Notes: generated by a model not told the origin, from the sequence alone. Positions 6,803 through 59,343 are shown, counted from the first letter of the stretch. The stretch is DNA of 64,000 nt from a virus (IMGVR_UViG_3300021378_000014:17417-81416); one strand, 5' to 3'. Translations and numbers: made by a program.

Positions 6803-7663
6803 TTAATAGTTATGAAATTCTTTATAAAATTGATTACCTAAAACTAAAGCGTTAGTATCTGGTATAATACTAAAAACAAGTTTACGTTGTGATTCATCAT
6901 CTACAGGTATAAATCTAGCACCACAAGGATCTTGGGTGATAAACATAATATTATCATCCGGTAGTTTTGGCTCAAAATACTGTACGTATTCATTATTAGC
7001 TTTTTTACCAGTTTTACCGGTAGCTAATAAATCAAGAAAAGCTTTAGCGTACGGAAATGCTCTATTACCTACATCCCAAAATTGGGATATAGAGAGTTCA
7101 TCTAATACTCTATCAGTAGTTAATTTCGGAGTATCAAAGATAGTTAATTGAACTCGATAAGGAAAAGGTTTCTCTATTACTGGGAGAGTTTTTATATGTG
7201 GAATATAACTTTCTTTTATTGCTTGCATAACTTTACGTCTAGCAAACGGATTAAGATTACCACTATAAAAATCTTGTCCATTAATTGTGTAAACTTTTGG
7301 AGTTCCAGCTTGAGTATTATTAGCAAGTACTCGTTCATTAGTTTCTTTATTTACTAGAAACACTTTATGTGTTTGCATATACTCATGAACTCTTTTTCCT
7401 CTCCCAGTAATAGGAAAGGCTCGTACGGTATCAACTTGTTTATTACCTTTATATATACCAAGGTAATAATTATCCGCTATTTGATCAGGTTCTACAATTC
7501 CAGTATGTCCAATTTTCATTCTAGAGCCTGGATTAGTATACTTAACAAGTAACTTTTTACCTGCACCTTTGATCGTAATACCATCATACCGATAATATTT
7601 TGGTATCTGTTTCTTTGATAACTCTACTGTTCTGATATAATTAGGTATTATTACTTGATACAT
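6803..7663 (-). CDS. RusA-like Holliday junction resolvase
   Basis: WDVGN...YAKAFLDLL...LPDDNIMFI matches the RusA D-x-x-N/K/DD arrangement. Confidence 0.6.
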   Translation of the reverse strand: MYQVIIPNYIRTVELSKKQIPKYYRYDGITIKGAGKKLLVKYTNPGSRMKIGHTGIVEPDQIADNYYLGIYKGNKQVDTVRAFPITGRGKRVHEYMQTHKVFLVNKETNERVLANNTQAGTPKVYTINGQDFYSGNLNPFARRKVMQAIKESYIPHIKTLPVIEKPFPYRVQLTIFDTPKLTTDRVLDELSISQFWDVGNRAFPYAKAFLDLLATGKTGKKANNEYVQYFEPKLPDDNIMFITQDPCGARFIPVDDESQRKLVFSIIPDTNALVLGNQFYKEFHNY

Positions 7664-7665
7664 AG

Positions 7666-8115
7666 TTAAAGTTTAATTATTAAGATATAATCTGGATTAC
7701 GTAATATTGCTTTTATAGCAATATATTGTTCTTCAGTATTACCTACCATAGTAGTAGGTATATACGCGTTACCATAATGCCCTTCAACATTACTTTTTAA
7801 TGCAGCTAAATGATTTTTAGTTAAAGGCGCTTTTGTATATAAAAACTTTCTTACAATAGTAACACCTTCTTCTTTTACAGAATTACGATCTGGCATTACT
7901 ACTCTACTAAACTCAGCTGTATATCTATCTGTCATTAAAACAAGATGTTCTTTTTTAAGTTTTACTCTACGTATAGTACAAAACTCTTTTTCTTTAATTT
8001 GATGATAAGCGCGTTCAGCTTCGTCTTTAGTAAGAGGAACAGCAAATAGTAAATCTACTGTGTCATTAATAAGAAATCCACGAAGGATATTTTGAATGAT
8101 GTCTATTTTATTCAT
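7666..8115 (-). CDS. hypothetical protein
   Basis: 149 aa ORF overlapping the primase stop. Confidence 0.65.
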   Translation of the reverse strand: MNKIDIIQNILRGFLINDTVDLLFAVPLTKDEAERAYHQIKEKEFCTIRRVKLKKEHLVLMTDRYTAEFSRVVMPDRNSVKEEGVTIVRKFLYTKAPLTKNHLAALKSNVEGHYGNAYIPTTMVGNTEEQYIAIKAILRNPDYILIIKL

Positions 8116-9190
8116 AGTTATATTGTTGAAAATCTGAAAAATCTCTATTATTGAATTGATAAAAACCTTCAGATTTAATATAATCTATCAGGTTTTGTGT
8201 TCGTTTAATTCCATGTTTATCTACGTGTTCACTAAAGTCTTTAGCTTTATAATCATAAGTTTCAAACTTACCATTTGTAAAGAAAAGAGCAGGTATGTTT
8301 TGTTTACGTAATTGTACAGCTAGTTTAATACCAGCATAATCAAAATCCATCAAGCTATATATATTACTCCAAATACTACGTAAATATGCAATTTGAATTG
8401 GAGTAAGAATTACACTTTCTGCAGGTACTGCTACAGCTGTAATACCAAAACTATACAAAGACATTACATCTTTAAGAGATTTCGTAATAATTCCAGTATC
8501 AGCTTTTACTACTTGTTTAGTGCCTTGTACTTTATTACTATTAGTAATAAACTTATATTGTTTTCTACGTGGAAAGTATAATTTCCAATGTTCACCTTCA
8601 GTAGTCGTACCTAAATAATAAGCATAACAAGGATCATTCTCAAAGTAATGATAAATAGTGTTATTATTTAGATATGCAACTTGAACAGGAAATACTTGAT
8701 AATAATTAAGTATATCAAGATTTATATTAAATCTATCCCAGTAACAACGATCGGCATAATTCCAATCTCTAGTAAGTATATTAATAAGAGTAAATTCTCT
8801 AGGTTTATTAAAGTTTTTAACAGAAATTAAACCACTAGAACCAACTGTAGTATATTCATGAATTTTAAACTCTTTAGCTACAATGTGTAGAATTTTATTA
8901 AATCCTACTTTATCGTCAGCGTTAATACAGTTTTGATAGCCAACTACATCAAAACAATCTCCTGTAAAATAACCAGCAAAATCATTAAAAGTAATTCTAT
9001 TATCAGCTTTAACTAAAAATCCACAAGTAGGATTTTTATCAGCTCTAAGGGGTGATCTTATTAATTTATTTTTAGTTATACATTCATAAATAATATGAAT
9101 AGAAATACCTAAAAATCTAGCCAATATAGCTTCTTGAGTTATACGATCTAATATATACTCTCTTGTTAACTTTGGTAGTATTCCTATCAT
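8108..9190 (-). CDS. DnaG-family primase (crAss type)
   Basis: SPLRADKNPTC...FNDF...GDCFD Zn-finger-like region; TOPRIM ITKSLKDVM, MDFDYAG, KDFSE. Start placed at MIGILPK because the longer track start lies inside a terminator. Confidence 0.85.
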   Translation of the reverse strand: MIGILPKLTREYILDRITQEAILARFLGISIHIIYECITKNKLIRSPLRADKNPTCGFLVKADNRITFNDFAGYFTGDCFDVVGYQNCINADDKVGFNKILHIVAKEFKIHEYTTVGSSGLISVKNFNKPREFTLINILTRDWNYADRCYWDRFNINLDILNYYQVFPVQVAYLNNNTIYHYFENDPCYAYYLGTTTEGEHWKLYFPRRKQYKFITNSNKVQGTKQVVKADTGIITKSLKDVMSLYSFGITAVAVPAESVILTPIQIAYLRSIWSNIYSLMDFDYAGIKLAVQLRKQNIPALFFTNGKFETYDYKAKDFSEHVDKHGIKRTQNLIDYIKSEGFYQFNNRDFSDFQQYNYE

Positions 9191-9209
9191 AAACTCATGT
9201 TTTAAAGTG

Positions 9210-9243
9210 AAAAAAAAAGCCAGCACTAACTGGTAGTGCTGGC
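9210..9243 (-). terminator. intrinsic terminator after SSB
   Basis: GCCAGCACTA-N5-TAGTGCTGGC followed by T9 on the minus strand. Confidence 0.8.
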
Positions 9244-11944: not shown

Positions 11945-13086
11945 AGCTTGTATTTTTTGTTGTTTAGAGTATGTCCAATACTCCAATTATGAAATTTACC
12001 TTTGTTATATTCTGGATAAGCTGGTAATAAATGACCATTAGCTAAATCATTATATAACCACAATTGACCATCATTATCATATCTTGATTTTATAAGGCCA
12101 AGATGTATAATATTTTGTGTTGTAACTTCACGCGGTCCATATTGCGGTATACCAAGTTTAGATGGCATAAGCATAGTAAAAACAAAATCACTAGCTTGAA
12201 ACAGTTGTCCACCACAATAAATATCACTTTTTAATGGATAATGAAGTCCAGGTTTACTTCTACGTCTATCATCTTCAATTTCATTATTGAATTGATTTAG
12301 TGGAATTACCATTGCTCCAAACACTTCGCGAAGAGAAATAAACATCTTACTTAAATTATTAATAAGTTCAGTATCTGATTTTTCTTTATCTTTAGCTACA
12401 AGTAATGTATGGTCTAATGTTACAATCAACTCTGTTGGTTCAGGATTATTACGTACATATTTATTATACGCAACTTCTACAGTTTTAAATATATCCATAA
12501 CTGTACCAGCGTGATTGAAAAACAATACATTTTTAGTACGCTGTAAATAATTTAAAATAGTAGTGGTAAACCTATGTTCTTCGCTGGTTAATACATTATA
12601 TTCATACACACCGTTACTTATCTTTTTAGCAAAAGAACTGTGCAAGTAGCTGTAATTCATACCAGCATAATCACAAACACTACGCGCTATTTCTTTACCA
12701 GGATTCATTTCAAAACCAAAATGAAGCATACATACTTTAAACGTAGCATCTTTATTTATAGCCGGAAATATGAGTTCTTTCCCAGTAAAAGAAATAGAAG
12801 CTTTAGTTTCAATATGTTTAATAAGTTCTTCATCATTAGTCTCAAAAGGAAGAATTATTTCTTCTGTACTTCTAAAATCATCACGAAGATTATTCAATAA
12901 GAAACTTTTTGCACTGCCACTTGCTCCCGCAATAGTATATATGCTAGCGAACCGCATATATTTCATCATTGCTTTGTTAAGCGGTGTAAATCTAGTAATT
13001 AAACCATTTTGATCACCACTTAACTCCCTAGTTATTTCTCGATTTGCTGTTTTAACAGCACTTGTATATGTAGTGGGAGTTAGCAT
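11941..13086 (-). CDS. DnaB-like replicative helicase (RecA-fold domain only)
   Basis: Walker A GASGSAKS, FGFEM, VTLDHTLL, PLNQFN, SDIY..GQLFQASD, KSR. Confidence 0.8.
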   Translation of the reverse strand: MLTPTTYTSAVKTANREITRELSGDQNGLITRFTPLNKAMMKYMRFASIYTIAGASGSAKSFLLNNLRDDFRSTEEIILPFETNDEELIKHIETKASISFTGKELIFPAINKDATFKVCMLHFGFEMNPGKEIARSVCDYAGMNYSYLHSSFAKKISNGVYEYNVLTSEEHRFTTTILNYLQRTKNVLFFNHAGTVMDIFKTVEVAYNKYVRNNPEPTELIVTLDHTLLVAKDKEKSDTELINNLSKMFISLREVFGAMVIPLNQFNNEIEDDRRRSKPGLHYPLKSDIYCGGQLFQASDFVFTMLMPSKLGIPQYGPREVTTQNIIHLGLIKSRYDNDGQLWLYNDLANGHLLPAYPEYNKGKFHNWSIGHTLNNKKYKL

Positions 13087-15505: not shown

Positions 15506-17950
15506 TTATTTTGTCCATGTATCTAATACTTCATAATCACATCCCATCTTATAATGTTTAAGATAACGATTAGCAGCATTAGTCATAGTATTTTTAACAA
15601 ATTCAGGATAATTACATTTAATAACATCACCTGTTTCCAGATATTTATCTAAATCTTTGTGTTTAGATATATCTACTGTTTGCAGTACACTTTTATTTGG
15701 TTGTAATTGTTTTTTTACAGTATCATTACACCAATATAAAGTAGGTTTAATTAACGGTTTCTCAAAACGAGAAACTAATTCATCATGTACCATTCCAGGT
15801 ACAGTAGCTTTAATTTGTAAACGTTTAAGTGCATAACTAAGCTCTACTATGCTTTCTTTCATCATATCAGCTTGAGTTCCTTGAAACGGAGCATTAGCAG
15901 CTGCACCACTAACTTCAGAAAGTAATCTCCAACTAGGCTCTTCGTTATTTTTATAACAACGAATAAGCTCTGGAAACCAAATACGACTATTAGTTCTAGT
16001 ATTTAGAACTAAATAACCTTGATTAATTGCTTTTCCTATGTTAGAATCTACAAAAGCAAATGTAGCGGGAATTGCATTTTTAATTGATTGGATGCCAACA
16101 GCACCCTCATCTTTTGATATATTAAGCGTTTGACCAGCTTTATCCGCTTTCATTTGATAAATAGTACCAAATGTCATTGGTTTAAAAGCAGTACGTAAAT
16201 CTTTATTTACGCTTTTATTAATTTCAAACGTTTGAGCATTACGCCAATCTGCTTTAATATCAGTATTTTTTAAACTAAAAGTATCAAGAAGAGCTTTAGC
16301 GTAAGTACTATGTTGTAATTTAAAAAACATAGTAGGATTAGTCCAAATACCGCATTTATAACCAGCGCGATACCAAAATATATCTCTCCATGTAGCTTGC
16401 GCTATTGGACTATGCGCATCATCATTAATAACAGCCCATTCATACAGTTGTTTATCGTGAGCAAAGTCACATACTATTGTAACTTCTGCCCCTGATAGAT
16501 CCGCTGTAAGTACAAATTCATCAGCACTACCGCGAAAACAATTTCTAATACGTTTTTCTCGTGGTATATTTTGTATATTAATTTTATCTGGAAGCATTGT
16601 ACCACCACCAGATTGATAACGTCCTGTTTTAGCAGTATCTGTTCGATATTGTGTATGTATTAAACCTGTAACTTCACTTATTTTAGCCATAAAACCAGCA
16701 CCGTAAGTTTGAAGTTGTTTAGTTACTTTACGATGTTTAATAAGAATACGCAATAAACTGTTACCTTTAGAGTGTGGTAATTCTATTGCCATTGCTTCAA
16801 GAGCACCCTCTTTAGTAGTATATTTACGAGCTTTATCGTCAATACACCATTTTGCTCCACCTTTGAGTGATTTTTTGTAAAATGTAGGTACGTGATATGG
16901 TACTCTACGATCATCAGTCGGTAGTTCAAATTTAAGTCTACCAAATAAATACTTTACTTCATCACTACTACCCCAATTAATAACATTGGTAGATTTAACA
17001 TTCTTATTACTGGGAGAGATGTCATCAAACAGACTATTCTGCGTAAAAGTATAATTACTACGATTATTATCGTATTTTTTTCCTTTTATATATATAGCTT
17101 CATCTTTAGATAAAATAGTATCTCTAAGTCTACGAAACTCTGTATCTAAGTCAATTTCTAATTGAAATTGCTTAGTTTTATTTTCTTCTATCATTGTAAG
17201 CCACTGCTCACAATCAAGATAAAAACCACTAAGTTCCATATCACCAACAGCCCAAGGTTGTTGTCTACCAATTTCATCAATATAAAACTCTAAATTATAC
17301 TTTGCAATGTCATATTTCTGTTGATCATAAATAGCTATTAGCCATTCAATATCTTCAGCTAAATAATTAAGATGTTGAAGTTCAATTGTATATCTATTTT
17401 TAGGTATACCGATAAATTGATCTCTTACATCTTTATCTAGTTCAATTGAATATTTCTTAAATCTACGTTTAAGTAATGCAGCAAGACTAAAACTAAATCC
17501 CATTTGATTACTAACTGATTTACCACAACCTTGCCATATTTTTTGATCAGCGATCATAGTACAATACCAGTTATCAATTATAACATTACAATTATAATTA
17601 AGAATAGTATAATCGTATTTAGCATTATGAGCTACATATTTGATAGTTGGTAAAATAAAAGATTCAATATTGTAAATAGATACAACATCTAATATATAAA
17701 CAATATTTTTATTACCAATACCAAGTAATAATACATCGTTCATTAACGGATCAAGTCCATTGCATTCAGTATCTAATCCTGCAATAGTATTATTTTGATA
17801 CCAATCAAGTATTTCTTTACGTCCAGTATCTTCAGTTACTACTTCTATATTATTTACACTATTAAAGTGCTTATAGCTAGAATTATTAGTTACTAAAATT
17901 ATCTGCTGCCCGGCTTGAACGTCCGAGAAAAGCGGGTCTAAATCGTTCAT
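15506..17950 (-). CDS. polA: family A DNA polymerase with 3'-5' exonuclease
   Basis: Exo motifs LDTECNGL, HNAKYD, YLAED; TGRYQS, NIQNIP, motif A ADLSGAE, motif B RTAFKPMTFGTIY, FQGTQADMMK, motif C VHDEL. Start placed at MNDLD. Confidence 0.93.
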   Translation of the reverse strand: MNDLDPLFSDVQAGQQIILVTNNSSYKHFNSVNNIEVVTEDTGRKEILDWYQNNTIAGLDTECNGLDPLMNDVLLLGIGNKNIVYILDVVSIYNIESFILPTIKYVAHNAKYDYTILNYNCNVIIDNWYCTMIADQKIWQGCGKSVSNQMGFSFSLAALLKRRFKKYSIELDKDVRDQFIGIPKNRYTIELQHLNYLAEDIEWLIAIYDQQKYDIAKYNLEFYIDEIGRQQPWAVGDMELSGFYLDCEQWLTMIEENKTKQFQLEIDLDTEFRRLRDTILSKDEAIYIKGKKYDNNRSNYTFTQNSLFDDISPSNKNVKSTNVINWGSSDEVKYLFGRLKFELPTDDRRVPYHVPTFYKKSLKGGAKWCIDDKARKYTTKEGALEAMAIELPHSKGNSLLRILIKHRKVTKQLQTYGAGFMAKISEVTGLIHTQYRTDTAKTGRYQSGGGTMLPDKINIQNIPREKRIRNCFRGSADEFVLTADLSGAEVTIVCDFAHDKQLYEWAVINDDAHSPIAQATWRDIFWYRAGYKCGIWTNPTMFFKLQHSTYAKALLDTFSLKNTDIKADWRNAQTFEINKSVNKDLRTAFKPMTFGTIYQMKADKAGQTLNISKDEGAVGIQSIKNAIPATFAFVDSNIGKAINQGYLVLNTRTNSRIWFPELIRCYKNNEEPSWRLLSEVSGAAANAPFQGTQADMMKESIVELSYALKRLQIKATVPGMVHDELVSRFEKPLIKPTLYWCNDTVKKQLQPNKSVLQTVDISKHKDLDKYLETGDVIKCNYPEFVKNTMTNAANRYLKHYKMGCDYEVLDTWTK

Positions 17951-17978
17951 AGCTTGTTTTGAGTTGTTGTATTGAAAT

Positions 17979-18014
17979 AAAAAGGGGTTACTAGTAGTAT
18001 ATACCAGCAACCCC
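17979..18014 (-). terminator. intrinsic terminator upstream of polA
   Basis: GGGGTTGCTGGTA...TACTAGTAACCCC-TTTTT on the minus strand. Confidence 0.65.
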
Positions 18015-18030
18015 ATAAAAGCCATTAAAA

Positions 18031-18435: not shown

Positions 18436-18925
18436 TGCTTTTATTTTTACGTTGTTTTTCAATAAAATAGTGTGTCCCACTATTAATGCGACTAGCAGTT
18501 AAAGCTTTAAGTTCAGCTTTAAGTTGTGTACTTTTATTAGGATCTTCGTTAGTTTTAAGTACGGTTTCTGCTGCAGCAATTAACGCTTGATGTTCTGTGT
18601 TTGTAGTATATCTTTTTTGTAAACTAAGTAATGCATCCATACCTTTTGGTACGACATACATACTTGTAACTCCATTACCATAAGTAGCAATAACTACATG
18701 ACTAGGAAGATCATTCCAATCAGTAATTCCGAGGTCAGCAGCTAATCTCATAGCTGCTGAAGTTTTCTTATATTGATTAAGAAAGGATTTCATTGTACCT
18801 TTACTTACATAAACAGCTGCTTCCATTTTTACAAGTAAATCACATTCTGTTTTGTATCGACGTACAACTACACCGGCCATAGGGCCAGTAGTAATACGAA
18901 TACACTTTTTCTTTTCAATTACCAT
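18332..18925 (-). CDS. hypothetical protein
   Basis: Start placed at MVIEKKK; AT-ending codons like the rest of the arm. Confidence 0.6.
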   Translation of the reverse strand: MVIEKKKCIRITTGPMAGVVVRRYKTECDLLVKMEAAVYVSKGTMKSFLNQYKKTSAAMRLAADLGITDWNDLPSHVVIATYGNGVTSMYVVPKGMDALLSLQKRYTTNTEHQALIAAAETVLKTNEDPNKSTQLKAELKALTASRINSGTHYFIEKQRKNKSNAKLKVNDDSNSIVLESDLILAVNGERADNNSGE

Positions 18926-18950
18926 TGTTTGTTTAATTGTGTAAATATGA

Positions 18951-19277: not shown

Positions 19278-19790
19278 TTAATATGCATATTCATGTCTAC
19301 CACTACGATTAGTTTGGTATTTACTACGAATATAAGTTATAAATTTATGATTAGTTGCAATAGCTGGATTATAAAACCAGTATGTACTGGTTGGGAACGT
19401 ATGTGACTTCTTTCCCAGTAATAGAGAAGTGGCTAGAGTTAGCACCTCATTACTTATTACTTTATTATAATTAGTAGTTCTATAACCATTAAATTGGCTA
19501 CGTTGAGTTACTACTCCATGTACAGTGTTAGGCCATTTGTTAGAACGCATACGGTTAAGTACCGTCTCCATTACTAACGTCATACCTAGCATACCTTCAC
19601 CGATAGCTTCGCCTTGAGCTATTCTGGCGAGTATTTTGATTTCAGCTTCTGTTTGTACAGAAAGCGCAGTAACGAATATAGTTACACTTGTGTAACTATA
19701 GATTTCATCAACTGCAGGTTCATTACTAACACTAGAAGCTAAAATAGCTACTAAAATTAGTAATGCAAAGATAATATTTGCATTTCTCAT
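19278..19790 (-). CDS. SleB-like cell wall hydrolase (Hydrolase_2) with signal peptide
   Basis: LARIAQGEAIGE...VLNRM...WPNTVHGVVTQRSQF...WFYNP...GRHEY; hydrophobic N-terminus. Confidence 0.88.
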   Translation of the reverse strand: MRNANIIFALLILVAILASSVSNEPAVDEIYSYTSVTIFVTALSVQTEAEIKILARIAQGEAIGEGMLGMTLVMETVLNRMRSNKWPNTVHGVVTQRSQFNGYRTTNYNKVISNEVLTLATSLLLGKKSHTFPTSTYWFYNPAIATNHKFITYIRSKYQTNRSGRHEYAY

Positions 19791-19795
19791 TTTAA

Positions 19796-23123: not shown

Positions 23124-23199
23124 CGAGGTATATTTCTATTACTGGGAAAGATTAAGGCAGTCCTAACTTCTTTCCCAGTAATAAGAAAGGGCTGCTTAG

Positions 23200-29856: not shown

Positions 29857-30549
29857 ATGAAACTATTTAAAGTTGATGTACTACAAGGAACAATAGAGTT
29901 CCTGGAGAATGAGTTTGGGGCCATACGAGAATTTAAAGCGGTAATGTCAAAACTGCGAAAGGTACAAGGCGACTCACAAGGTCGGTACAAGTTGCAGAAC
30001 AAACGAGAACTACTATATATATTCTTTATGGCCGACTGGACTGGAGCTAATCCTTATCATAGTTTAACTGAAGTAGAACGGCATCATAAAGCTGTTGAGG
30101 CTGCTGGGTTAGAACGTGGTTATGTTCCTGATGAGATAGTTCTTGATGCTTGTAATAAGTATATTGAACTACAGCAAGAAATGTCACCTACTACTAAGAT
30201 TCTTGTTTCTCTTAAACGTAATATGCAACAAAGTAGTAATTACTTTGAAGGACTTGCTGAAGAGAATGAAAAACTTATTAATGTTAAGAAAAGTTTAACT
30301 CTTGAATTAGGAGGACAAACTGATGCAACATTATTAGAAAGTATTAGTGAGATTAATAAGATGTTACAAAGTAATATCTCTGCTGCTCAAAAATTTACAG
30401 TTAGTCTTGAACAAGCTATTGAAAAAATAGATAAACTTCAAGATAAAGCTAGATTTGAAATGACTAATAGCCGTCGGATAACTGGCGGTGGTGATTTGAA
30501 CAATAGAGAACTTCCCAGTAATAGAGAAGATATTTCGGGTAATAGATAA
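29857..30549 (+). CDS. helical protein, candidate terminase small subunit
   Basis: RELLYIFFMADW..NPY...YVPDEIVLDACNKY and C-terminal RITGG; located upstream of TerL. Confidence 0.5.
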   Translation: MKLFKVDVLQGTIEFLENEFGAIREFKAVMSKLRKVQGDSQGRYKLQNKRELLYIFFMADWTGANPYHSLTEVERHHKAVEAAGLERGYVPDEIVLDACNKYIELQQEMSPTTKILVSLKRNMQQSSNYFEGLAEENEKLINVKKSLTLELGGQTDATLLESISEINKMLQSNISAAQKFTVSLEQAIEKIDKLQDKARFEMTNSRRITGGGDLNNRELPSNREDISGNR

Positions 30550-30625
30550 TGATACTAACCAGTAATATTCCTATTACTGGGAAAGATTTCTTAACTTTAA
30601 TTATTAATTAATTAAATTAGAACTC

Positions 30626-32033: not shown

Positions 32034-34349
32034 ATGAATCCTTTTAGTACTACGCTTGAAGAAGAGAAAGCGAATAATAATCCAGCACATTCTTTTAGGT
32101 GGGTAGCTAATAACTTTGAAAAGACTGGGCTTTATCGTACTGAAGATATTACTTTTGCTAATACCGATATAATTAAAGAAGCAAGTAGGCATTTTCAAAA
32201 ATACGGTATTTACAATGATATTGATCCTAAAACTGATCCTATTGCTTTTTCGAGGTGGTGGGATAGATGGGAATATCGACGTAAACATGGAATGGTAGTT
32301 AATTGTAAATTAGATAAATCTGGAGGTAATTCAGATAAAGATTTGCAACCTCTTTGGATTCCTGGTAAAATGGTAGGTCTTATGAATTTCGGACCCATTC
32401 TTCGTACTGCTGATCCTGATGATCTAACTATATTAGATGCTAATACTGCTACGTTAGATCAACGTAAAAGACTAGGGATTGATGAAGAAATGGAACAACT
32501 ATTTAGTAAAATCAAAGTAAACGAAACTGCTGATATTACACATGACTTTATGGATTTCTGGGATGGTCACTTTCATTATTGGGTTGCTCAAGATTTTAGT
32601 GAACGTATTGGATTAGATATGGTTGTAGTTAAAGCCCGACGTAAAGGTTTTAGTTATATAGGTGCGTGGGATGCTTGGGATGAAGTTTACATGAATCCTT
32701 TTATTAGTATCTTTTTAGTAGCTTATGATATGAAATATCTTACAGCTTCTGGTGGTCTTTTTTCGTTAGTTCAACAGTATTTTAACTTTGAACAAAAATA
32801 TACAGACTGGCGTAAACGTACACTTAGTAAAACTAAAGATCATATTAAGTTTGGATTTACATTTACTGGCGATCAAGAAGAGTATGGTTTCCTAAGTAGT
32901 ATTACTTGTTTTTCTGCTATGGATAATCCAGATTGTTTACGTGGTAAAATGGCTAAAAAGATTAAATGGGAAGAAACAGGTACGTTTCCTAATCTACAAC
33001 AGACAAGAGAAATTGCATATTCGGCTGCTGAAGCTGGGGGATACAAACTTGGACATAGCACTTATTGGGGTACTGCTGGTAGTAAAGATGGAGATTATGG
33101 TCCACTTCGTAGTGCTTTTTATAAACCTATTAGTTTTGAAGCTTTACCGTTTGATAATATTTGGGATATTAATAAAGAAGGTACAGAAGCTGCTTTATTC
33201 TTTGGTCAACTTCAAAATCTAGTTTATGATAAAGATGGTAATACAGATATAGAAGCCGGTAAACAATTCCATTTACGTAAAACAGAAAGAGCACGTAATA
33301 GTAAAACTGCTAGTCAATTCCAGCAATGGTCTGCTGAAAGAGCTACTACTCCTGCTGAAGCTTTGAACAGACAAGGTGATAATATCTTTTCTGCTTTAGC
33401 GGGCAGACTACAAATGCAAGTTGATCGTTTAGATATAGACCCTGTACTTAAATCAATTGGTCGTTGTGGAAGATTAGAAGAAACAACTAGTGGTATTCGT
33501 TTAATTACAAACGAAGAATTAAAACTACAAGGTAAACCTTATCATCTACCAATTAATGATACACCTGAAGCTTTAAGTAGAGATATGGATATGCATGGTT
33601 GTGTAGTTGAATGGTTTAGTCCACATACTATATCTTATGTTGATCCTCATGATCCATTCTCTTTTACTGGGAAAGTAAATTCAGTTGTACCCAAAGGATT
33701 ATACTATATTTGGCATGATCCGTATGCAACTGATAAAGATAGTACTCAAATTACTATTAAAGATTCTCTTGGTGTTGCTTATGTATACGAAAAAGCAAAC
33801 GGATTTACTCCGAGTAAAGGTGATCGTATAGTAGCTAGTTGGATTGGTAGACCTGATACAACTGATGGTTATAACTCTCAACTTTTACTTTTATGTAAGT
33901 ATTATAATACAATAGATGGTTTACTTTTTGAGAATGACCGAGGTGATGTTTATCCTTATTTTAAACATCATAAAGCTTTACGTTATTTAATGGAAGAACC
34001 TGAAATGTTAACACTTAAAGAACTTAGTGGTAAGACAGGTAGAAATTATGGTTTATCTATTGGTAAAAACTTTAGACGTAAAGCGGAAGGTGCTCGTATG
34101 CTTAAAGATATGCTTAGTTCAGTATTTAGTAAAAATCAAGAAACTAATATTGAAACTACGTTTATAGAGTATATATACTGTAAACGTTTATTGAAAGAGT
34201 TATTACGATGGAATAAAGATGGTAACTTTGATTGTGTTTCTGCTTGTATTGTAGGTCAATTTATGATTAGAGAAATAGAAGAAAGAGAAACAGAAACTGA
34301 AGATACATTTAAAGAAGTAGATGATTTCTTTACGCGTGCTCATTTTTAA
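32034..34349 (+). CDS. terL: terminase large subunit
   Basis: crAss-type Walker A KARRKGFS, Walker B WEETG, GTAG, nuclease HDPY, FENDRG, GNFDCVSA. Confidence 0.92.
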   Translation: MNPFSTTLEEEKANNNPAHSFRWVANNFEKTGLYRTEDITFANTDIIKEASRHFQKYGIYNDIDPKTDPIAFSRWWDRWEYRRKHGMVVNCKLDKSGGNSDKDLQPLWIPGKMVGLMNFGPILRTADPDDLTILDANTATLDQRKRLGIDEEMEQLFSKIKVNETADITHDFMDFWDGHFHYWVAQDFSERIGLDMVVVKARRKGFSYIGAWDAWDEVYMNPFISIFLVAYDMKYLTASGGLFSLVQQYFNFEQKYTDWRKRTLSKTKDHIKFGFTFTGDQEEYGFLSSITCFSAMDNPDCLRGKMAKKIKWEETGTFPNLQQTREIAYSAAEAGGYKLGHSTYWGTAGSKDGDYGPLRSAFYKPISFEALPFDNIWDINKEGTEAALFFGQLQNLVYDKDGNTDIEAGKQFHLRKTERARNSKTASQFQQWSAERATTPAEALNRQGDNIFSALAGRLQMQVDRLDIDPVLKSIGRCGRLEETTSGIRLITNEELKLQGKPYHLPINDTPEALSRDMDMHGCVVEWFSPHTISYVDPHDPFSFTGKVNSVVPKGLYYIWHDPYATDKDSTQITIKDSLGVAYVYEKANGFTPSKGDRIVASWIGRPDTTDGYNSQLLLLCKYYNTIDGLLFENDRGDVYPYFKHHKALRYLMEEPEMLTLKELSGKTGRNYGLSIGKNFRRKAEGARMLKDMLSSVFSKNQETNIETTFIEYIYCKRLLKELLRWNKDGNFDCVSACIVGQFMIREIEERETETEDTFKEVDDFFTRAHF

Positions 34350-36860: not shown

Positions 36861-38069
36861 ATGCCCACAGAAACGGATACTAACGTAGGGAATGAAGGTA
36901 ATGCTGATTTTGGAAACATCACTATTGGTAATGTTTTTAGTGCCGGAGGTACTCCTCCTTCACAACTGGATAATAAAGATACTAAAGCTAATCCAGACGG
37001 TGAACCTACAACGCCAATTACTACAGACACTAAACCTGTAGAAACTGTTGTTACTGATACTAAAGCTGATCCTGCAGAAGAAGAGATTGTTGAAGAATAT
37101 TCTCAAAATACTGCTGGTGATCTTTTAGATAAAGATGGTAAAGTTGTAGCTAAAAAAGGAGAGTATGAAGTTGACGCAGAGGGAACCATTTCTTTTACTG
37201 GGAAAGAAGACAATCTTAGTCCTGTTCTTAATATAGCTAAAGAAAAAGGTTATGACCTAGTCGATGAGGATGGTAATCCTATGGAGTTTGAAAATACGCC
37301 AGACGGTGTATTTGCATTAGCAACTACTATTGGTGAACGTATGATTGATGAGTATGAAATTAAACTTCTTACTACCTTTCCTATTGTTGAAGAAATTGTT
37401 AATCACCTTAAAGCAGGAAAAAGTCCTGAAGACTTTTTTAAAAGTAAAGTAGAAACTACCGATTATACTAAAATGACTTTTAGTAAAGATGATGTTGGAA
37501 CACAACGTAATTTAATTAGAAATTATTATACCAACGTTGGCAATCTTACTGCAGAAGATGCAGAAGAAGCTATTAAGTTATTTGAAGATTCTGGTAAATT
37601 AGAAGAAAAATCTAAATCTGCTTTAGAAAGATTAAAACAACACCAGATTACTACTGAGAATGCTCGTAAAGCTGCTAATCAAGAAGCTATTCGCGTAAAA
37701 GAAGCTAATACAGCTCAGTATTGGGATGGTGTTAAACAAACAATTAATACAGGTAATCTTGGAGATATTACTATTCCTGAAAAGGATAAGAATGATTTCT
37801 TAAAGTTTATTGCTGTACCTAATAAAGATGGTGTAGTTGGAGTTTCTAAAAAATACAATGAACTACCTACTGATAAGAAACTTATGATTGATTATCTTTT
37901 ATATAAAGATTTATCTTTAGAAGATTTAGTTAGTCTTAAAGTCAATCAAAAACAAGTTAATGATTTGCGTAAACGTAAAGCTGTTCTTACTCCTACAGCA
38001 GGTTCACGTAAAGTTATTAAAAGTTCTGGTGCCGAAGGAGGTGACTACACTCTTGGTAATTTAGCATAA
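36861..38069 (+). CDS. acidic scaffold-like protein
   Basis: Acidic low-complexity N-terminus; lies between portal and MCP. Confidence 0.7.
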   Translation: MPTETDTNVGNEGNADFGNITIGNVFSAGGTPPSQLDNKDTKANPDGEPTTPITTDTKPVETVVTDTKADPAEEEIVEEYSQNTAGDLLDKDGKVVAKKGEYEVDAEGTISFTGKEDNLSPVLNIAKEKGYDLVDEDGNPMEFENTPDGVFALATTIGERMIDEYEIKLLTTFPIVEEIVNHLKAGKSPEDFFKSKVETTDYTKMTFSKDDVGTQRNLIRNYYTNVGNLTAEDAEEAIKLFEDSGKLEEKSKSALERLKQHQITTENARKAANQEAIRVKEANTAQYWDGVKQTINTGNLGDITIPEKDKNDFLKFIAVPNKDGVVGVSKKYNELPTDKKLMIDYLLYKDLSLEDLVSLKVNQKQVNDLRKRKAVLTPTAGSRKVIKSSGAEGGDYTLGNLA

Positions 38070-40596: not shown

Positions 40597-41657
40597 TGAC
40601 TATACAAGAAATGCACATCGACTTTCAGTTAAAACTGCAAGAAGTGTATGCTTATACTTTTGGTGATTTTACTAAAGAAGAAATTGATTGGGTATTAAAT
40701 GAACATATGTTTAAGTTTATTGAGTATCGTTCTGATCCTAAAAGTAATAGAAAACAAGAAGGATTTGAAAGTACTCAAAAACGTTATGACGATATTGAAA
40801 GTTTAATAACTACAACCTCTCTCCCAGTAATAGAGAATGTGGGGTATGTAAGTGCATTTCTTCCTAGTAATTATTTTAAACTAGTTAGTGAAAGACCTGT
40901 AGTGTCTTGTTCTCCTAAAGTTATTGTAGAACAATCATTATCAAGTTTAGGAATTAATTTAATTAATTCAACTCAAACATCTGTAGCTACTTATCAACTT
41001 ACAATTAGTACTAATGGTGATAGTTTTTTATTGTTTGATAAAGCCGATTATACAACAAAAGTTTTAGGACAAAGTGAAATTCCTTTTTTAACGGCTTTAG
41101 TTATAAATAAACTAAGTAGTTATAAACCAGGTCAGCTTATAGCTGCTTGGGAATCTATTGGGGATTTTCACACCCCTAATAAAACTGCTGTTGTTGGTTA
41201 TTATGATAATATAACTATCACCATTACTAGTACTAATAGTACTGGTAATACGTTTACGACAACCTTTACTTTTTCAGCTACTACTATTAATAAAGCACAA
41301 GTTGCTAATGATAGTAAAGAGGTTGATGCAAGGTTACTTAATCATGAGTTTCTTCATCGTCTATTAGGTAATTATTTTAGTAGAACTAGACCTGATTCGC
41401 CAGTGTGTGTAATAGAAGATGGTATAATTAAGGTTTACTATTCAAATTTTAGCGTTAGTAGTGTTAATATAACTTATGTTAAATCTCCTAGATTAATGAG
41501 TAATTCTTTAAGTATAGATTGCGAATTAGGAAGTAGAACTGGTCAACGTTACAATATTTGTAGACAGATTGTAGATGCTGCTGTAGCGAGTGTTGCTGGT
41601 AGAATTTCTGCTGGTAACACTCCTATTTTAACTGAAAATTTTTTAATAACTGAATAA
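40596..41657 (+). CDS. tail ring/connector protein
   Basis: MTIQEMHIDF...EEIDWVLN...GFESTQKRYDDI...ITYVKSP...CEL. Confidence 0.75.
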   Translation: MTIQEMHIDFQLKLQEVYAYTFGDFTKEEIDWVLNEHMFKFIEYRSDPKSNRKQEGFESTQKRYDDIESLITTTSLPVIENVGYVSAFLPSNYFKLVSERPVVSCSPKVIVEQSLSSLGINLINSTQTSVATYQLTISTNGDSFLLFDKADYTTKVLGQSEIPFLTALVINKLSSYKPGQLIAAWESIGDFHTPNKTAVVGYYDNITITITSTNSTGNTFTTTFTFSATTINKAQVANDSKEVDARLLNHEFLHRLLGNYFSRTRPDSPVCVIEDGIIKVYYSNFSVSSVNITYVKSPRLMSNSLSIDCELGSRTGQRYNICRQIVDAAVASVAGRISAGNTPILTENFLITE

Positions 41658-51234: not shown

Positions 51235-51888
51235 ATGAATGATAAATCACTAAATACGATCGCTACTTTTATTGCAGGTAGATTAGATCAAGCCAATAAT
51301 TTATATTTAAGAGAAGAATTAAAACTTGCTATTAAATATTACAGAGCTTTATTATTTAAAAGAGATTTTGATAAAAGAGGTAATTTAGGTTTATTTGCTC
51401 AACATTTTATTGTAGAACTTGAAAGAGTTGCTGAAACAGATTGTAATACTTTAATTGTAGGTAATTGTAAACTTAGTAAAACTAAAGTGAAGATACCTTT
51501 CCCAGTAAGAAAGAATGGAGGGCCGATATTCCAATATGTAGGAGATAAACTATTTACTGGTAGTTATCAAGAACAATATCCTGAAACATTAAACGTTAGT
51601 TTATTTGATAGGTTTATTGGTAATAAAATTAAGTATTATTATAACGATGGTTATATTTATGTTTACGGTAATAAATACTTAAAAAGTATTGCTGTAAGAG
51701 ATGCTTGGGAAAACCCAAGTGATTTATTACCTTTATGTTTAAATAGTACTAATTGTTTTGCTGATGATGAACCTTTTCCAGTACCTATGGATATGCTACA
51801 GACTATCATTACTAGTATTATTTCTGGAGAATTTAGTATTAAAATTCCTAACGACCAAGAAACTACAATAAGCAATGTTACGACTTAA
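51235..51888 (+). CDS. tail ring protein
   Basis: YYRALL, YYYNDGYIYV, WENP, DDEPFPVP..IPND pattern; synteny. Confidence 0.65.
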   Translation: MNDKSLNTIATFIAGRLDQANNLYLREELKLAIKYYRALLFKRDFDKRGNLGLFAQHFIVELERVAETDCNTLIVGNCKLSKTKVKIPFPVRKNGGPIFQYVGDKLFTGSYQEQYPETLNVSLFDRFIGNKIKYYYNDGYIYVYGNKYLKSIAVRDAWENPSDLLPLCLNSTNCFADDEPFPVPMDMLQTIITSIISGEFSIKIPNDQETTISNVTT

Positions 51889-52678
51889 AGATATGTATGA
51901 TATTTATAAAAAATATTATTCTAATAAACAGACTAAAGCAGAACAAGAATTAACAAAGATAGTTACTGCACGTAAAGAATTAAAAGCTAATATTATTTTA
52001 CATGAATCGGTATTTAAAGAAAGTAATATTACTTTAAGTACAGCTTTAAGTATTACTGATAGTAGAACGATCAAGGCCATTTCTTTTACTGGGAAAGTAT
52101 CCTTAACTACTGTTGATATTCTTACACAACATCTTAAAGATATATCTTATCTTAATAAAAGACTTAAAGCTTTAGTAGAAGAAATTAATTCTTATAAACA
52201 TATAGTTGTAGAGTATGAAGTTTTTAAAGAAATTCTTCAGCTATATAATAAAACTAAAGTTAATCTTCTTATTACTAAAGGTTACTCTTGGAATCTTGGT
52301 AGTGGACTTGGAACTATTAGTGTAGTATTAAAAAAGATACCTGTTAAAAAAGATTTAGCTGGTAATGTAATGATAAGACCTAATTGGCCAGCAAGTAAAA
52401 AGAATAAACGAGAACTTGAAAAACAAGGTGTATCTTTATATTCTGAAGATAATCCTACAGGAGTAAAATGGATTGTTGCTCATACTGATGAAACTCAAGC
52501 TTACTTCGATTGGCGAGGAGCTAATCCTTTATTTATAGCCAATGTTAAAGATATGAAGTTTAAACCAACTAAAGGTGAAAATGGAATTTGTGGTAAACTT
52601 AGTAGATATCGAAAAGCTAATCCAGAAGTAGATAATTATTACATTAACAATATAAATTCTGCATATAATGTCAGCTAA
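51875..52678 (+). CDS. IHF-like protein of the crAss tail block
   Basis: FKEILQLYN...LITKGYSWNLGSGLGTISV...PNWPAS...MKFKP; precedes the tail tubular gene. Confidence 0.65.
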   Translation: MLRLKDMYDIYKKYYSNKQTKAEQELTKIVTARKELKANIILHESVFKESNITLSTALSITDSRTIKAISFTGKVSLTTVDILTQHLKDISYLNKRLKALVEEINSYKHIVVEYEVFKEILQLYNKTKVNLLITKGYSWNLGSGLGTISVVLKKIPVKKDLAGNVMIRPNWPASKKNKRELEKQGVSLYSEDNPTGVKWIVAHTDETQAYFDWRGANPLFIANVKDMKFKPTKGENGICGKLSRYRKANPEVDNYYINNINSAYNVS

Positions 52679-56300: not shown

Positions 56301-57514
56301 CTCGAGTTGCTCGATCTATTGTATCTAATAATGAAGAATATGAGTTATCTTGGCGTACGTTTTTAGTTAATGATTATTATGAAATGCCTAAAGATAAAGG
56401 TGTAATTTGGAAACTTACTGTTTATAATCAAGCTTTAATTATACATCTTGAGTATTCTTTATATGTTGCTTTAGTTAAAGATCGTCTTGCACTTAATATA
56501 CAAGAAATCTTTCTTGGAACAGGTGATATATTTGATAGACGTCCTGATGAAATTATAGGTACTCCTGAAGGCTACGCTGGTTGTCAATCTCAATGGGCTG
56601 CGTTTACTTGTAAACTTGGTTATGTATTTATTGATCTTAATCAAGGTAAAGTATTTCTATTTAATGGTAAATTAAAAGAACTAAGTAACGATAAAATGCG
56701 TACTTGGTTCTATACTAATTTTACTACTAATGAAACTTTAACGGATTTGACCACTTTCCCAGTAATAGATAATCCTCGTACACAATCTGGTGCTATTGCT
56801 TGGTATGATGAGATTTATAATAGAATTATGATTGGATATACTTATCGTACTTCTAGTGGAGTAGATAAATTTCGTAGTCGTCAATTAAGTTATTATCCTG
56901 ATTTAGAAGCTTGGGTAAGTGAACATGACTATAATCCATCTATAGCTTATGCTACGCGTCGTGGTATCTTTAGTGTAGATGTAAATAAAATAAATAATAC
57001 TTCTACTATTTATTTACATAATCAAAGGAATTACGGAGTATTTTATAATAATGATCGTTATAGTGCGTCAATTGATGTAATACTTAAAACTCCAGGAGCT
57101 GAACAAGTAAGATGGGATGGAGTTCTTTGGAATAGTTTAGTTACTGATGGTGTACGTACTTTTAAAGATGAAACGTTTACTTTTATTGTTATATACACTG
57201 AAGATCAATGTACTGGATCTATTGAATTAGTAGATAAAAAAGATCTTTACGCTAATGATTCTCGTAGTACTCGAAATACTAAATACACTTGGAAATTTAG
57301 TAAAATACGAGATATTGTTGTAAATAAAGATGATATTATTATTACTAATGAAGGTTTTCTGAATATATTTAATTTAAAAAATAATCCTAATTGGTATGAA
57401 CTTTCAAAGTTTTATAATAACTTTATCGTTGTTAGGTTTATTTATGATAATGCTGATCAAAAAGAAATATTTCTTAATGATCTTAATGTAAATATTATAA
57501 AAACACGAAGATGA
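53321..57514 (+). CDS. tail stabilization/muzzle protein
   Basis: 1397 aa beta-rich; SNEPG, WTDNLNSPR, RLYLGN, GYAGCQSQW, WVSEHDY. Confidence 0.8.
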   Translation: MFKGYNKDTTYANMQTGESPFARNIVVTKKFLSPSNEPGFTQQVVLTGLLIGGIATSYKDVLFIKNGAIDEIGIFEGTTYTCVVKGSFGFDINFPIEGTFKYNFGQQLIIAWTDNLNSPRILNVDCLPFDVNPDCTLVNITDSRLMDLTPELSIPVIDLLPHAVGGSVEVGAYWAFIAYEYLDGTRTNWVKMSNTILVTDNKPNEIFINYEGAEGGTPTNKIIQLSISNIDTAFSKIVLGIIRQRNGIQDAFIVNSFTIEADTQTIRYEGTETTIAVSIEELLVPNQTYIKAKTITSLDDRLYLGNVKTEDTIDWQQYANNVTIDWVYGNPFNLLDTTDSYENPVVFFNERTFRSDEVYDFYAVAKLKTGSYSEAFHIPGIEEGVINVSGTNFPQSLGLQEFKNLGYTLPDLDEYLAIAPDAKLYHLVNTAKVNTNFGGVLIGNMGFYQNEDVRYSDEACSLIKDCDENIIGNLAGVRRRFHRFPSISQIHTALNEYVEYGKVTSKTALLHATGFTIIPGSPTTAVLDYDIVNSTLSPTIDADASPDGSIRYTPTVASIFRFEIDTRIFDYRNQLEVKIGYVKGGITTLLIDIDEPSSINNRDRLLTVNEVVALDVGDFFFIDVHIIATGIYFGGEVSNTANIFRITDISFNGIETKMKRFGIRLNNLCIPNEIAAKIDHLEVFYAKRTFNNSTIVGQSLIDIINGADVRSYDFDLLATKASVGITHINAEIAFDSGNTDFITYAFTNVINKIKQVKTHKYVAANVSGTPDNRKREEYLQLELSNITSLPNDKLVLANLKVHKRNLYQQVELVPTGEIILHNYTGGSIPATYINTLTLYGGDTVISTYGHLHSALLPKGFYTITAPEVEAIGQFSTFGTTRLGAIPNPSIVDLATLIIFSVWFYPVESIFNIGLRHDNELIDLDDYFPKTNQLPVTIDLAIDKTLSPLIEDNDYYTGESQITYNYDFHAFPPNLNIQQFNCIRGCYDNQVIYPTRVARSIVSNNEEYELSWRTFLVNDYYEMPKDKGVIWKLTVYNQALIIHLEYSLYVALVKDRLALNIQEIFLGTGDIFDRRPDEIIGTPEGYAGCQSQWAAFTCKLGYVFIDLNQGKVFLFNGKLKELSNDKMRTWFYTNFTTNETLTDLTTFPVIDNPRTQSGAIAWYDEIYNRIMIGYTYRTSSGVDKFRSRQLSYYPDLEAWVSEHDYNPSIAYATRRGIFSVDVNKINNTSTIYLHNQRNYGVFYNNDRYSASIDVILKTPGAEQVRWDGVLWNSLVTDGVRTFKDETFTFIVIYTEDQCTGSIELVDKKDLYANDSRSTRNTKYTWKFSKIRDIVVNKDDIIITNEGFLNIFNLKNNPNWYELSKFYNNFIVVRFIYDNADQKEIFLNDLNVNIIKTRR

Positions 57515-59343
57515 AAAGATTAAAGAAATATGGTGTTGGAGGGTTACTATCTGGTATAGGTGGACTTGCTGATGCTTATAGTAATCAATCTGACGGTTCT
57601 ACTGATCCTGCTAGTTCTTTTATTAGTGGAGCTACTAACGGAGCTAGTGTTGGTTCTTTACTTGGACCAGTTGGTGGCGTTGTTGGCGGTATAGTAGGAG
57701 GAGTTAAAGGCATGATGGGAGCTGAAAGTGCTAATCGTGAATTACTTAAACGTAAAAAGAAAATGCGCTTGTTTGAGGAAGAAATGCAATCAAATAACGA
57801 TAAAGCTTATCTTCAAACTTATCCTACTAATGGAGTAGCAAGTAGCGGATTTTACGCTAAAGGTGGTAATCTTGTTGATCCGCCCGGTACTGATTCTAAT
57901 ATGGCTAGATTAATAAAACCAGTAGCTAGAGAAACTACAGCTGTTAATTTACCAATTGAAGATTTACAAAGTACGTTAAAGCAACAACCTCTTTGGAAAT
58001 ACGAAGATCATCCTTATTTACCTAAAGAAGCTATAGATATTTATAATAAAAGTAGAACTACTCAAAATAAAAGAATTGTAGATTCTGGTTATGAAAATAG
58101 ATTTATTGCTCGTAATAGTGAAGGATTTTTATCTTATGCTGCAGGAGGCGAGCTCACTCCTATTACTGGGAAAGTAGACCAAGTCGTAGGAGATACGCAT
58201 AGTCAAGACACTAATATGGACGGTCAAACTGGTGTTATGTTACCTACACCTCAAGGAGGTCAAGCTGAAGTTGAAGGCGGTGAAGTAATGAAAGATGGCC
58301 GTTATGTTTTTAGTAATCGTCTTGGTATGGGTGGACGTTCTTATGCTAATTTAGCTAAAGAAATTGCTATTACACCAGAATATCAAAAACAAGAACAAAT
58401 GAAAAGTAAAGCGGAAAAACGTATGGGTAAAAATTTAGGTGGAGTTTATGATACTAGTAGTAAACGATTGTTAGCTCGTAAAGATGCTTTAGATATTCTT
58501 TTTGATAAACAAGAAGATAGTAAAGCTGCAGAATCTAATCAACAATACGCTGCATTAGGTGCTGATCTTGGCACACTATCTGATAAATTTAAAGGTAGAT
58601 TATTAGATATTGCACCTTATGCTGATAATATTGCTAATTCTATTATTAATAAACAAACTCCTGAAATTCCATTACCTCGATTAACTAATGCGCCTAGACT
58701 GCAAACAGAATTTAGAGTAGACGATCAACTATCAGCTATTGATAGAGCAGGTTCAGCTAGAGATCGTAACATTCGACAAACTAGTGGAAATGCCGCTACA
58801 ACTCGTGCTAATTTATTAGCTGGAAGTAGTCAAGATATTCAAACTACTAATCAAGTTCTTGGTGAAAAACAACGTCAAGAGTTAAGTTTACAGAATGCTC
58901 AAATTGGAGCTACTTACCAAAATACAGTAAATAATAACGCATTAATGAGTAATTATGATACAAATCAAATGTATCGTACTGATGATATGCAGCAACGAGT
59001 TAGTCAGAATGTGGCTGACGCTTCTACTAATGCTATGCAACAAGGTAGAGATCGTATGTTAGATGTTAGAGATAATCAAGCTCTAGCACTTACAGCTATG
59101 AAATATCTTGAATCCGGTGTATTAGATCGTTCAGGCTATTCTAAGGTACTGAAAGCTTTGAGTGAAGGGAAAGGTTTAGACGAAGCCTTAGCTTTGTTAG
59201 AACAAGCCAAAACAGCCGTATCGCAATCCGGGGCATTAAATACTGGTTCATTGTCGCTCAAAAAGTCACCTAAAGGTCGGCTTTGGAGTACTAATAATAT
59301 TTATGATAATATTTATGGAGGTATTCAGCCCAATGATGTTTAA
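57511..59343 (+). CDS. cargo/ejection protein with glycine zipper
   Basis: GASVGSLLGPVGGVVGGIVGG, AEVEGGEV, YVFSNRL, Q/N-rich helical C-half. Confidence 0.75.
   Translation: MKRLKKYGVGGLLSGIGGLADAYSNQSDGSTDPASSFISGATNGASVGSLLGPVGGVVGGIVGGVKGMMGAESANRELLKRKKKMRLFEEEMQSNNDKAYLQTYPTNGVASSGFYAKGGNLVDPPGTDSNMARLIKPVARETTAVNLPIEDLQSTLKQQPLWKYEDHPYLPKEAIDIYNKSRTTQNKRIVDSGYENRFIARNSEGFLSYAAGGELTPITGKVDQVVGDTHSQDTNMDGQTGVMLPTPQGGQAEVEGGEVMKDGRYVFSNRLGMGGRSYANLAKEIAITPEYQKQEQMKSKAEKRMGKNLGGVYDTSSKRLLARKDALDILFDKQEDSKAAESNQQYAALGADLGTLSDKFKGRLLDIAPYADNIANSIINKQTPEIPLPRLTNAPRLQTEFRVDDQLSAIDRAGSARDRNIRQTSGNAATTRANLLAGSSQDIQTTNQVLGEKQRQELSLQNAQIGATYQNTVNNNALMSNYDTNQMYRTDDMQQRVSQNVADASTNAMQQGRDRMLDVRDNQALALTAMKYLESGVLDRSGYSKVLKALSEGKGLDEALALLEQAKTAVSQSGALNTGSLSLKKSPKGRLWSTNNIYDNIYGGIQPNDV

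Follow-up and report, generated by a model that had tools for sequence, protein, structure and literature searches.

Why would a phage write the same short word again and again through its genome, mostly inside its genes? This question is raised by a 64,000-nucleotide stretch of viral DNA (IMGVR_UViG_3300021378_000014:17417-81416), hereafter called the window, in which the 12-mer TTACTGGGARAG occurs in 15 exact copies, compared to about 0.01 expected from dinucleotide-preserving shuffles. The window covers positions 17417-81416 of G000, a viral record of 81,416 bp with 98% completeness, and the whole of this genome contains 21 exact copies, 11 forward and 10 reverse. All 15 copies claimed in a preliminary description of the window are present and their places are right, except that those on the + strand had been given 6 nt early, with part of the 5' flank included; the + strand 12-mers begin at 7177, 17007, 23139, 30574, 33664, 37195, 52086 and 58163. 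An alignment of the copies indicates that the conserved site spans positions -7 to +11, approximately 19 bp (WTYYCTWTTACTGGGARAG), and is built, from 5' to 3', of a pyrimidine tract, TTAC, one base and a purine run. It is asymmetric, and beyond these ~19 bp no conservation is found among the copies.

The mismatch spectrum of the genome is all-or-none: 21 words are perfect, three deviate at one position (1.05 expected) and 20 at two positions (14.1 expected). Two good near copies were identified. The first, at window position 30510(-) (genome 47926(-)), has the full 5' flank and a position weight matrix (PWM) score of 19.4, and differs in the last 3 nt. The second, at genome position 16107(+), just outside the window, has TAT for TAC, again with the full flank. 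These two, the best near copies in the genome, occupy the largest same-strand gaps. The first had already been recognized in the preliminary description; the three weaker copies listed beside it look like chance. Between 40831 and 51496, a part of the window that includes the variable fibre region, no copies are found.

Eighteen of the 21 copies lie within open reading frames (ORFs) and three between them. Depending on the gene calls, 10 to 11 are sense and 7 to 8 antisense relative to transcription. Next, codons were shuffled synonymously, gene by gene, preserving every protein and the codon usage of each gene. In 300 such shuffles 3.36 copies are expected (maximum 6) versus 21 observed, and since three of the 3.36 are the unshuffled intergenic copies, the expectation for coding sequence is 0.36 versus 18 observed. 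Moreover, the sites use rare codons, namely GGG (6.4% of the Gly codons) or CCC (5.0% of the Pro codons). Because the coding copies are lost upon synonymous shuffling and the sites use these rare codons, the constraint lies on the DNA and not on the protein, as had been proposed. The word was also said to be read in several frames. More than one frame is indeed used, but 9 of the 10 sense copies share the frame [IF][SP][IF]TGK and 6 of the 8 antisense copies an FPVIE-like frame, while one antisense frame of the word is closed by TAA. Given the shuffles and the rare codons, this preference reflects where the word fits rather than a peptide motif.

The major capsid protein of G000 is 31-35% identical to the capsids of gut Crassvirales and its terminase is 24-32% identical among the records listed. 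Tail ring proteins 1 and 2 match crAss-specific Pfam families, and the same DNA is found in seawater, freshwater and estuary metagenomes (23 runs, 15 studies). Therefore, the phage can be considered a distant aquatic member of the Crassvirales. Closer relatives were found by protein matches only, with major capsid proteins that are 60-74% identical. IMG/VR relatives were collected using capsid, terminase and nuclease profiles, and their words were identified by de novo k-mer enrichment. Each motif-bearing relative has its own strict word of the same build, with YTAC-N-GG as the common core: TCTACAGGGAR in G026, TTTACAGGGAGA in G028, TTACAGGCAAAG in G033, RCAAYTTTAGTACRGGCGA in G032, CTATTACAGGGRA in G043, TATTACAGGCTA in G036, TTTACAGGCAGTT in G054, TTCTACGGGGGAGC in G051, CCTCTACGGGGGAAC in G055, CTCCTTTAYGGGGGAA in crAss002 and TCCTYTACRGGGG in Rudgehvirus jaberico. 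In p-crAssphage (BK010471) the word is CCATCCTCYACGGGGRGT, with 31 copies, of which 10 are intergenic, 11 sense and 10 antisense. No such word was seen in crAss001, phi14:2 or the aquatic genomes G029/G030, G031 and G045-G048. Scanning IMG/VR for the exact word yielded single chance copies in unrelated contigs only, and a metagenome scan with the capsid profile yielded only distant, motif-free relatives. Full-text searches, which covered both the words and nicks in Crassvirales, gave no paper describing the element, in line with the earlier impression that it is not a described crAss element.

The k-mer screen gave three further observations. G044 (IMG/VR 3300031953_000003) contains the enriched word GAGATAAAGGAGA in 8-10 copies, and crAss001 (NC_049977.1) contains CTCCAGAAG in 29 copies versus 1.8 expected. 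G031 (IMG/VR 3300020596_000023), which has no TAC-N-GG word, carries YAGGATCA 30 times, in 22 cases on one strand, and without conserved flanks. This enrichment is of another kind and may be related to codons or methylation.

Spacing was analysed in 13 genomes, in all of which both strands carry copies. For G000, the earlier description of the word as evenly spaced holds for each strand separately: copies on the same strand are at least 3,090 bp apart (P<0.0002), and their gaps, with a coefficient of variation of 0.52, are more regular than chance (P=0.003). It does not hold overall, with copies on opposite strands as close as 31 bp. The same-strand rule is followed in most of the 13 genomes. 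When these are pooled, a single same-strand pair is found within 1 kb versus 26.7 expected (P=7e-11), whereas opposite-strand pairs within 150 bp are approximately five times more frequent than expected (19 versus 4.0; P=6e-8). The words point outward ('- then +') in 19 of the 28 tight pairs (≤300 bp), and the other nine have the opposite arrangement. Neighbouring copies in G000 alternate between strands in 16 of 20 cases (P=0.008). This alternation is significant in G000, G032, Rudgehvirus and p-crAssphage, not in all genomes, and is treated as a by-product of the two spacing rules. The combination of same-strand exclusion and opposite-strand clustering points to strand-by-strand reading, with some factor that would take the DNA one strand at a time. 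Two known logics were rejected: type III restriction predicts avoidance of inverted pairs, whereas enrichment is seen, and with site-specific recombination, same-strand direct repeats would delete essential DNA.

The preliminary description had compared the copies to genome-organising sites such as parS, NBS and matS. The spacing rules make this analogy weak, because a duplex binder should ignore which strand carries the word; in addition, parS, matS and NBS sites are usually palindromic or clustered, whereas the word is asymmetric and dispersed genome-wide. The idea behind it, in which HU/IHF-like proteins or a RepL-like winged helix-turn-helix protein bind the duplex to organise, condense or package the genome, is quite improbable. 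An asymmetric site of ~19 bp would suit IHF, and the hallmark genes of the Crassvirales structural block include one for an HU/IHF-like protein (PMC10136315). In G000, the positional equivalent of this 'IHF' gene is the 267-aa protein encoded at 51875, between two ring-protein genes. Its AlphaFold2 model (predicted local distance difference test (pLDDT) score of 89) comprises a long N-terminal coiled-coil hairpin and a C-terminal domain with weak HU/IHF matches in Foldseek (E 0.09-0.9, template modelling (TM) scores 0.5-0.6). The protein probably represents the hallmark gene in an unusual fused form. A VIA-align fold search was filled with rows for the N-terminal coiled coil and is uninformative on the C-terminal domain. 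The family is present in all motif-bearing genomes, but also in 7 of 9 motif-free ones. Besides this protein, two other candidates had been named: the 22046 protein has a RepL match just under the Pfam cut-off, and the 29128 protein had no match. For none of the three does presence follow that of the motif across 25 genomes. Furthermore, duplex binding gives no reason for repulsion in the same orientation and attraction in the opposite one, and the all-or-none mismatch spectrum is unlike that of typical binding-site families.

With regard to transcription, the pooled sites comprise 109 sense, 73 antisense and 63 intergenic copies. Orientation is mixed, as had been stated before, and the signal is independent of the direction of transcription, with a modest coding-strand bias (109:73, p=0.009). 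Together with the shuffles, these counts support the word as a selected DNA-level signal, independent of protein coding and transcription direction. The same counts bear on whether the words are promoters, pause sites or terminators for a virion RNA polymerase or a modified host polymerase, which is very improbable. The word does resemble a T7-class promoter around the start point (TAYAGGGAGA, compared to TACAGGGAGA in G028). Sites are enriched in intergenic DNA (26% versus 10%) with some sense bias, divergent pairs recall two-way promoters, and two G000 sites 30-230 nt upstream of genes share extra similarity downstream. However, 40% of the genic sites are antisense and mid-gene, by which classical promoters and stoperators are ruled out, and even spacing per strand is not a property of promoters. 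The stoperators of cluster A mycobacteriophages (L5) are asymmetric, have one direction versus transcription and are mostly intergenic, whereas the G000 sites are mixed and mostly genic. Profile searches of the phage proteins found no single-subunit RNA polymerase. In phi14:2, transcripts made by the virion polymerase are not preceded by a common motif, and the promoters of the middle and late classes are sigma-70-like (bioRxiv 10.1101/2020.03.07.982082), which also counts against a role in transcription. Hairpin or cruciform signals, such as N4 virion-polymerase promoters or ssi/sso, were rejected: in five genomes the sites fold at -0.6 to -1.6 kcal/mol versus -0.7 to -1.2 kcal/mol for shuffles, and the G032 spelling has no pyrimidine/purine symmetry.

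What kind of factor would then read one strand at a time? The reading that is tentatively put forward here is that the word may be a strand-specific start signal for nucleic-acid synthesis (priming), read by a phage-encoded enzyme acting on single strands. Such a signal fits both the same-strand spacing and the excess of inverted pairs. In this scheme, the reader would be the phage DnaG/T7-type Toprim primase or an RNA polymerase. The template would be the complement of the core, 5'-CC-N-GTA-3', giving a primer pppAC-N-GG... that extends the way the word runs. With a copy about every 7 kb on each strand, forks moving either way would be served, and the tight inverted pairs, two thirds of which point outward, might allow synthesis to start both ways. 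The T7 primase recognizes 5'-GTC-3' together with a cryptic 3' base, and its strong sites, 5'-GGGTC-3', give pppAC primers (pppACCC). By analogy, the conserved T-A-C would provide a pppAC start like that of T7, and the G run that follows it a stable, G-rich primer.

The gene content is suited to such a role. The left arm of the genome encodes an ATP-dependent ligase, a Toprim primase (window 8108-9226), a DnaB-like helicase, an SNF2 helicase, a family A polymerase, a RecD/PIF1-like superfamily 1 (SF1) helicase and a marginal RepL-like protein. A 350-aa RecB-family nuclease (30806-31858), encoded next to the terminase gene, is conserved across the clade with an invariant E-D-DWK-QxxxY signature. 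Its AlphaFold2 model (pLDDT 92) is closest to mitochondrial MGME1, Cas4, AdnAB and RecE, which are exonucleases of single-stranded DNA (ssDNA). The primase, the DnaB-like helicase, the MGME1/Cas4-like ssDNA nuclease and the ligase are equipment for maturing discontinuous strands.

Several points weigh against priming at the words. DnaG/T7-type primase sites are likewise strand-specific and needed on both strands, but they are 3-5 nt long and frequent, whereas the word is ~19 nt, rare and letter-perfect; no primase is known to need ~19 nt. Each of the 25 genomes compared has the primase gene, the motif-free crAss001, phi14:2 and G030 among them, so primase presence does not track the word. More generally, a phylogenetic profile revealed no G000 protein that every motif-bearing genome has and every motif-free genome lacks. 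An inward orientation is seen in one third of the tight pairs, among them the most perfect pair of the window, and pieces of ~7 kb would be long for Okazaki fragments. No step in GC or AT skew is seen at 227 sites (p=0.25 and 0.18, respectively). Both strand initiation at the site and the protein that reads the word are inferred, whereas the selection at the DNA level, the spellings specific to each lineage, the spacing per strand and the excess of inverted pairs are shown by the analysis.

The closest described thing to the word is the set of published nick motifs of phages tf, phiKMV and T5. These are short, strict words running through genes, and relatives have similar positions with changed spellings, which the authors read as co-evolution of nickase and site (PMC3517423; PMC11780129). 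Accordingly, the words might be sites of a phage nickase, with localized single-strand interruptions on the strand that carries the word, as described for T5, the phiKMV-like phages and tf/Rembedalsseter. The phage ligase would seal them after entry, or the 3'-OH at the nick would start strand-displacement synthesis. This is rather unlikely, albeit the main rival to priming. The hallmarks of a strict word above chance, a changed spelling and similar positions in relatives are all found here as well. The motifs of T5/BF23, the phiKMV-like phages (CGACNNNNNCCTA/CTCCGG) and tf and Rembedalsseter (TACT/RTGMC, WACTRTGAC) have TAC in the core, as does the word, and tf TACT/RTGMC and phiKMV CCTA/CTCCGG resemble TTACT-GGGA. 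The coding-strand bias agrees with that reported for Rembedalsseter, and an ATP-dependent ligase is found in G000 and 11 of 12 motif-bearing genomes compared to 5 of 9 motif-free ones, a weak trend.

However, known cases comprise 4-14 unevenly spaced sites, all on one strand, whereas the crAss words number ~20-31, lie on both strands (11:10 in G000), are even per strand and form tight pairs. The spacing rules also lower the likelihood of nicks in packaged DNA. Inverted pairs are favoured 5-fold, although selection should avoid them when tight, since in the nicked state only ~16-35 bp would hold the genome together (2393/2411 in G032; 23139/23170 in the window). In 40% of the genic sites the nick would be placed in the template strand. 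No HNH, GIY-YIG or other nickase-like gene was found among ~40 proteins searched using Pfam and PHROGs, Protein Data Bank (PDB) sequence searches with three candidate families gave no matches, the modelled nuclease resembles ssDNA exonucleases and not site-specific endonucleases, and in G028, which has the word, no ligase was detected. In the Logan contigs of four of the 23 metagenome runs, no piles of read ends are seen.

Another enzyme moving along one strand could be a phage helicase-nuclease that starts from a DNA end and, at the word, stops degrading and switches to recombination, as at Chi, with even spacing limiting the loss after a break. It is unlikely that the words serve this purpose, even if it fits the per-strand, orientation-specific and even pattern: Chi, too, is specific for strand and orientation, the enzyme reads it while moving along the DNA, and its spacing matters. 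A RecB-family nuclease, an SF1 RecD/PIF1-like helicase and a RecT-like protein are encoded in 12 of 12 motif-bearing genomes, and the three most distant motif-free genomes (crAss001, phi14:2 and G030) lack all three genes. On the other hand, six other genomes have these genes and no obvious word, the helicase and nuclease genes are not adjacent (a complex between their products being putative), and the excess of tight inverted pairs is unexplained. Known Chi sequences are 5-8 nt long, defined by the host RecBCD/AddAB, over-represented in the host genome and replication-biased, whereas the word is ~19 nt, lineage-specific and strand-balanced, with a spelling that differs among related phages.

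Whether start signal or not, the sites can be followed through evolution. When sites are mapped onto the G000 proteins, six of those in G026, G028 and G032 fall within 12 residues of a G000 site versus 1.07 expected (P=0.001), a partial conservation of position that is seen at 30-50% protein identity. The first site of the window (Table 1) has the same place and orientation in the G028 orthologue, and both antisense copies encode LPVIEK. In this case CCCAGTA in G000 corresponds to CCCTGTA in G028, a synonymous change from CCA to CCT that fits the own spelling of each genome (TACT versus TACA). In the terminase gene (site 9), a G026 core lies within 5 aa of the same place. In the 610-aa gene (site 15), the G026 site is at the same place on the opposite strand, between the conserved AAGG and VVGDTH. 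Based on these comparisons, the sites are old, follow the spelling of their genome and occupy tolerant protein stretches. Co-evolution with a phage-encoded reader would produce such lineage spellings as its expected outcome. Orthologous protein segments are equal in length with or without the word, by which mobile elements and repeat insertions are ruled out.

The 'dialects' and the build-up of sites in tolerant protein parts also recall DNA uptake sequences spread by drive. In the Neisseria DNA uptake sequences (DUS) and the Haemophilus uptake signal sequences (USS), many copies are likewise found in both orientations, in preferred frames, at tolerant places and as intergenic inverted pairs, with lineage-specific spellings that co-evolve with the receptor. 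In contrast, these are cellular sequences for DNA uptake in which orientation is thought irrelevant, whereas the word shows same-orientation exclusion and is carried by a lytic phage. A selfish or drive-generated origin without phage function (a miniature mobile element, a homing footprint or biased gene conversion) is extremely improbable, as the ~19-bp site has no terminal repeats or target duplications and stays in frame without added length, some places are conserved despite the protein divergence, and drive does not predict strict spacing per strand. The remaining probability belongs to an explanation not yet thought of.

The sites of the window are listed in Table 1.

Table 1. Word copies in the window, with the position of the full site or pair and the gene context
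Feature	Position	Strand	Context
Site 1	7170..7188	+	12-mer 7177-7188, TTACTGGGAGAG; antisense within 286-aa gene 6803-7663(-)
Site 2	7399..7417	-	Sense in 286-aa gene 6803-7663(-), FPITGR; 222 bp from site 1, opposite strand
Site 3	12777..12795	-	Sense, DnaB-like helicase gene 11941-13086(-)
Site 4	17000..17018	+	Antisense, family A DNA polymerase gene 15506-18025(-)
Site 5	19410..19428	-	Sense, cell-wall hydrolase gene 19278-19790(-); sole sense copy in LLGK frame
Sites 6/7, pair	23132..23188	site 6 + (23139-23150), site 7 - (23170-23181)	Tight intergenic inverted pair, 12-mers 19 bp apart; flanking genes 22683-23123(-) and 23200-23547(-)
Near copy and site 8, pair	30510..30585	near copy - (30510-30521), site 8 + (30574-30585)	Inverted pair in gap upstream of RecB-type nuclease gene 30806-31858(+)
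Site 9	33657..33675	+	Sense, large terminase gene 32034-34349(+)
Site 10	37188..37206	+	Sense, 402-aa head-module gene 36861-38069(+)
Site 11	40819..40837	-	Antisense, 353-aa gene 40596-41657(+)
Site 12	51497..51515	-	Antisense, tail ring protein 2 gene 51235-51888(+)
Site 13	52079..52097	+	Sense, 267-aa HU/IHF-like candidate gene 51875-52678(+)
Site 14	56754..56772	-	Antisense, 1397-aa conserved tail gene 53321-57514(+)
Site 15	58156..58174	+	Sense, 610-aa gene 57511-59343(+)

The 286-aa protein whose gene holds two copies of the word is of unknown family and is conserved in G026, G028 and G030; by eye, its WDVGN...K..LD.L stretch recalls RusA-type resolvases. The two sites just upstream of genes (30574-30625, and genome 16727-16690 to the left of the window) share the downstream similarity TTACTGGGAAAG-wttt-st-TAACTTTAATTAwTT, which may represent a composite regulatory element.

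Mapping of metagenome contigs gave some additional observations. The only apparent joint between motif copies, from 19429 to 23130, is an artefact of a short contig from the 30.5-kb motif pair that was placed on other copies. At 24343-25009, the depth of contigs from other organisms goes up 5- to 100-fold (to 514 in run X4), and many loose ends are found at 24558-24597; the stretch is tRNA-like, conserved and common to unrelated genomes. In three of four metagenome runs, the substitutions at 18605-19110 exceed 30 in 500 bp and are accompanied by small indels, whereas the surroundings are near-identical; the patch looks like a strain-variable or recombined segment in the genes for a 218-aa and a 106-aa protein.

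In crAss-like phages, the dominant group of the human gut virome and also a common one in water, a letter-perfect and strand-specific signal that is evenly spaced on each strand offers a concrete, testable step in replication and DNA handling. The word persisted through divergence to 30-50% protein identity despite the drift in spelling, and in essential genes it takes precedence over the preferred codons. It is not limited to the gut Intestiviridae, as a distant seawater and freshwater lineage has it too, in an AT-rich spelling. A lineage-specific word is also a compact marker for classifying crAss-like contigs. Carriers among the cultured phages and reference genomes include crAss002, Rudgehvirus jaberico (Bc11, sequenced with a rapid native kit; PMC10028833) and p-crAssphage-like isolates, which makes experiments feasible. 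There is a small chance that much of the Crassvirales, including the most abundant human gut virus and the aquatic lineage described here, has a sequence-coded replication system. Strands would then be started or opened by a phage enzyme at no place other than ~20-nt words kept ~7 kb apart on each strand, with inverted pairs as two-way origins, and the specificity of the enzyme would change in concert with all 20-30 words of a genome.

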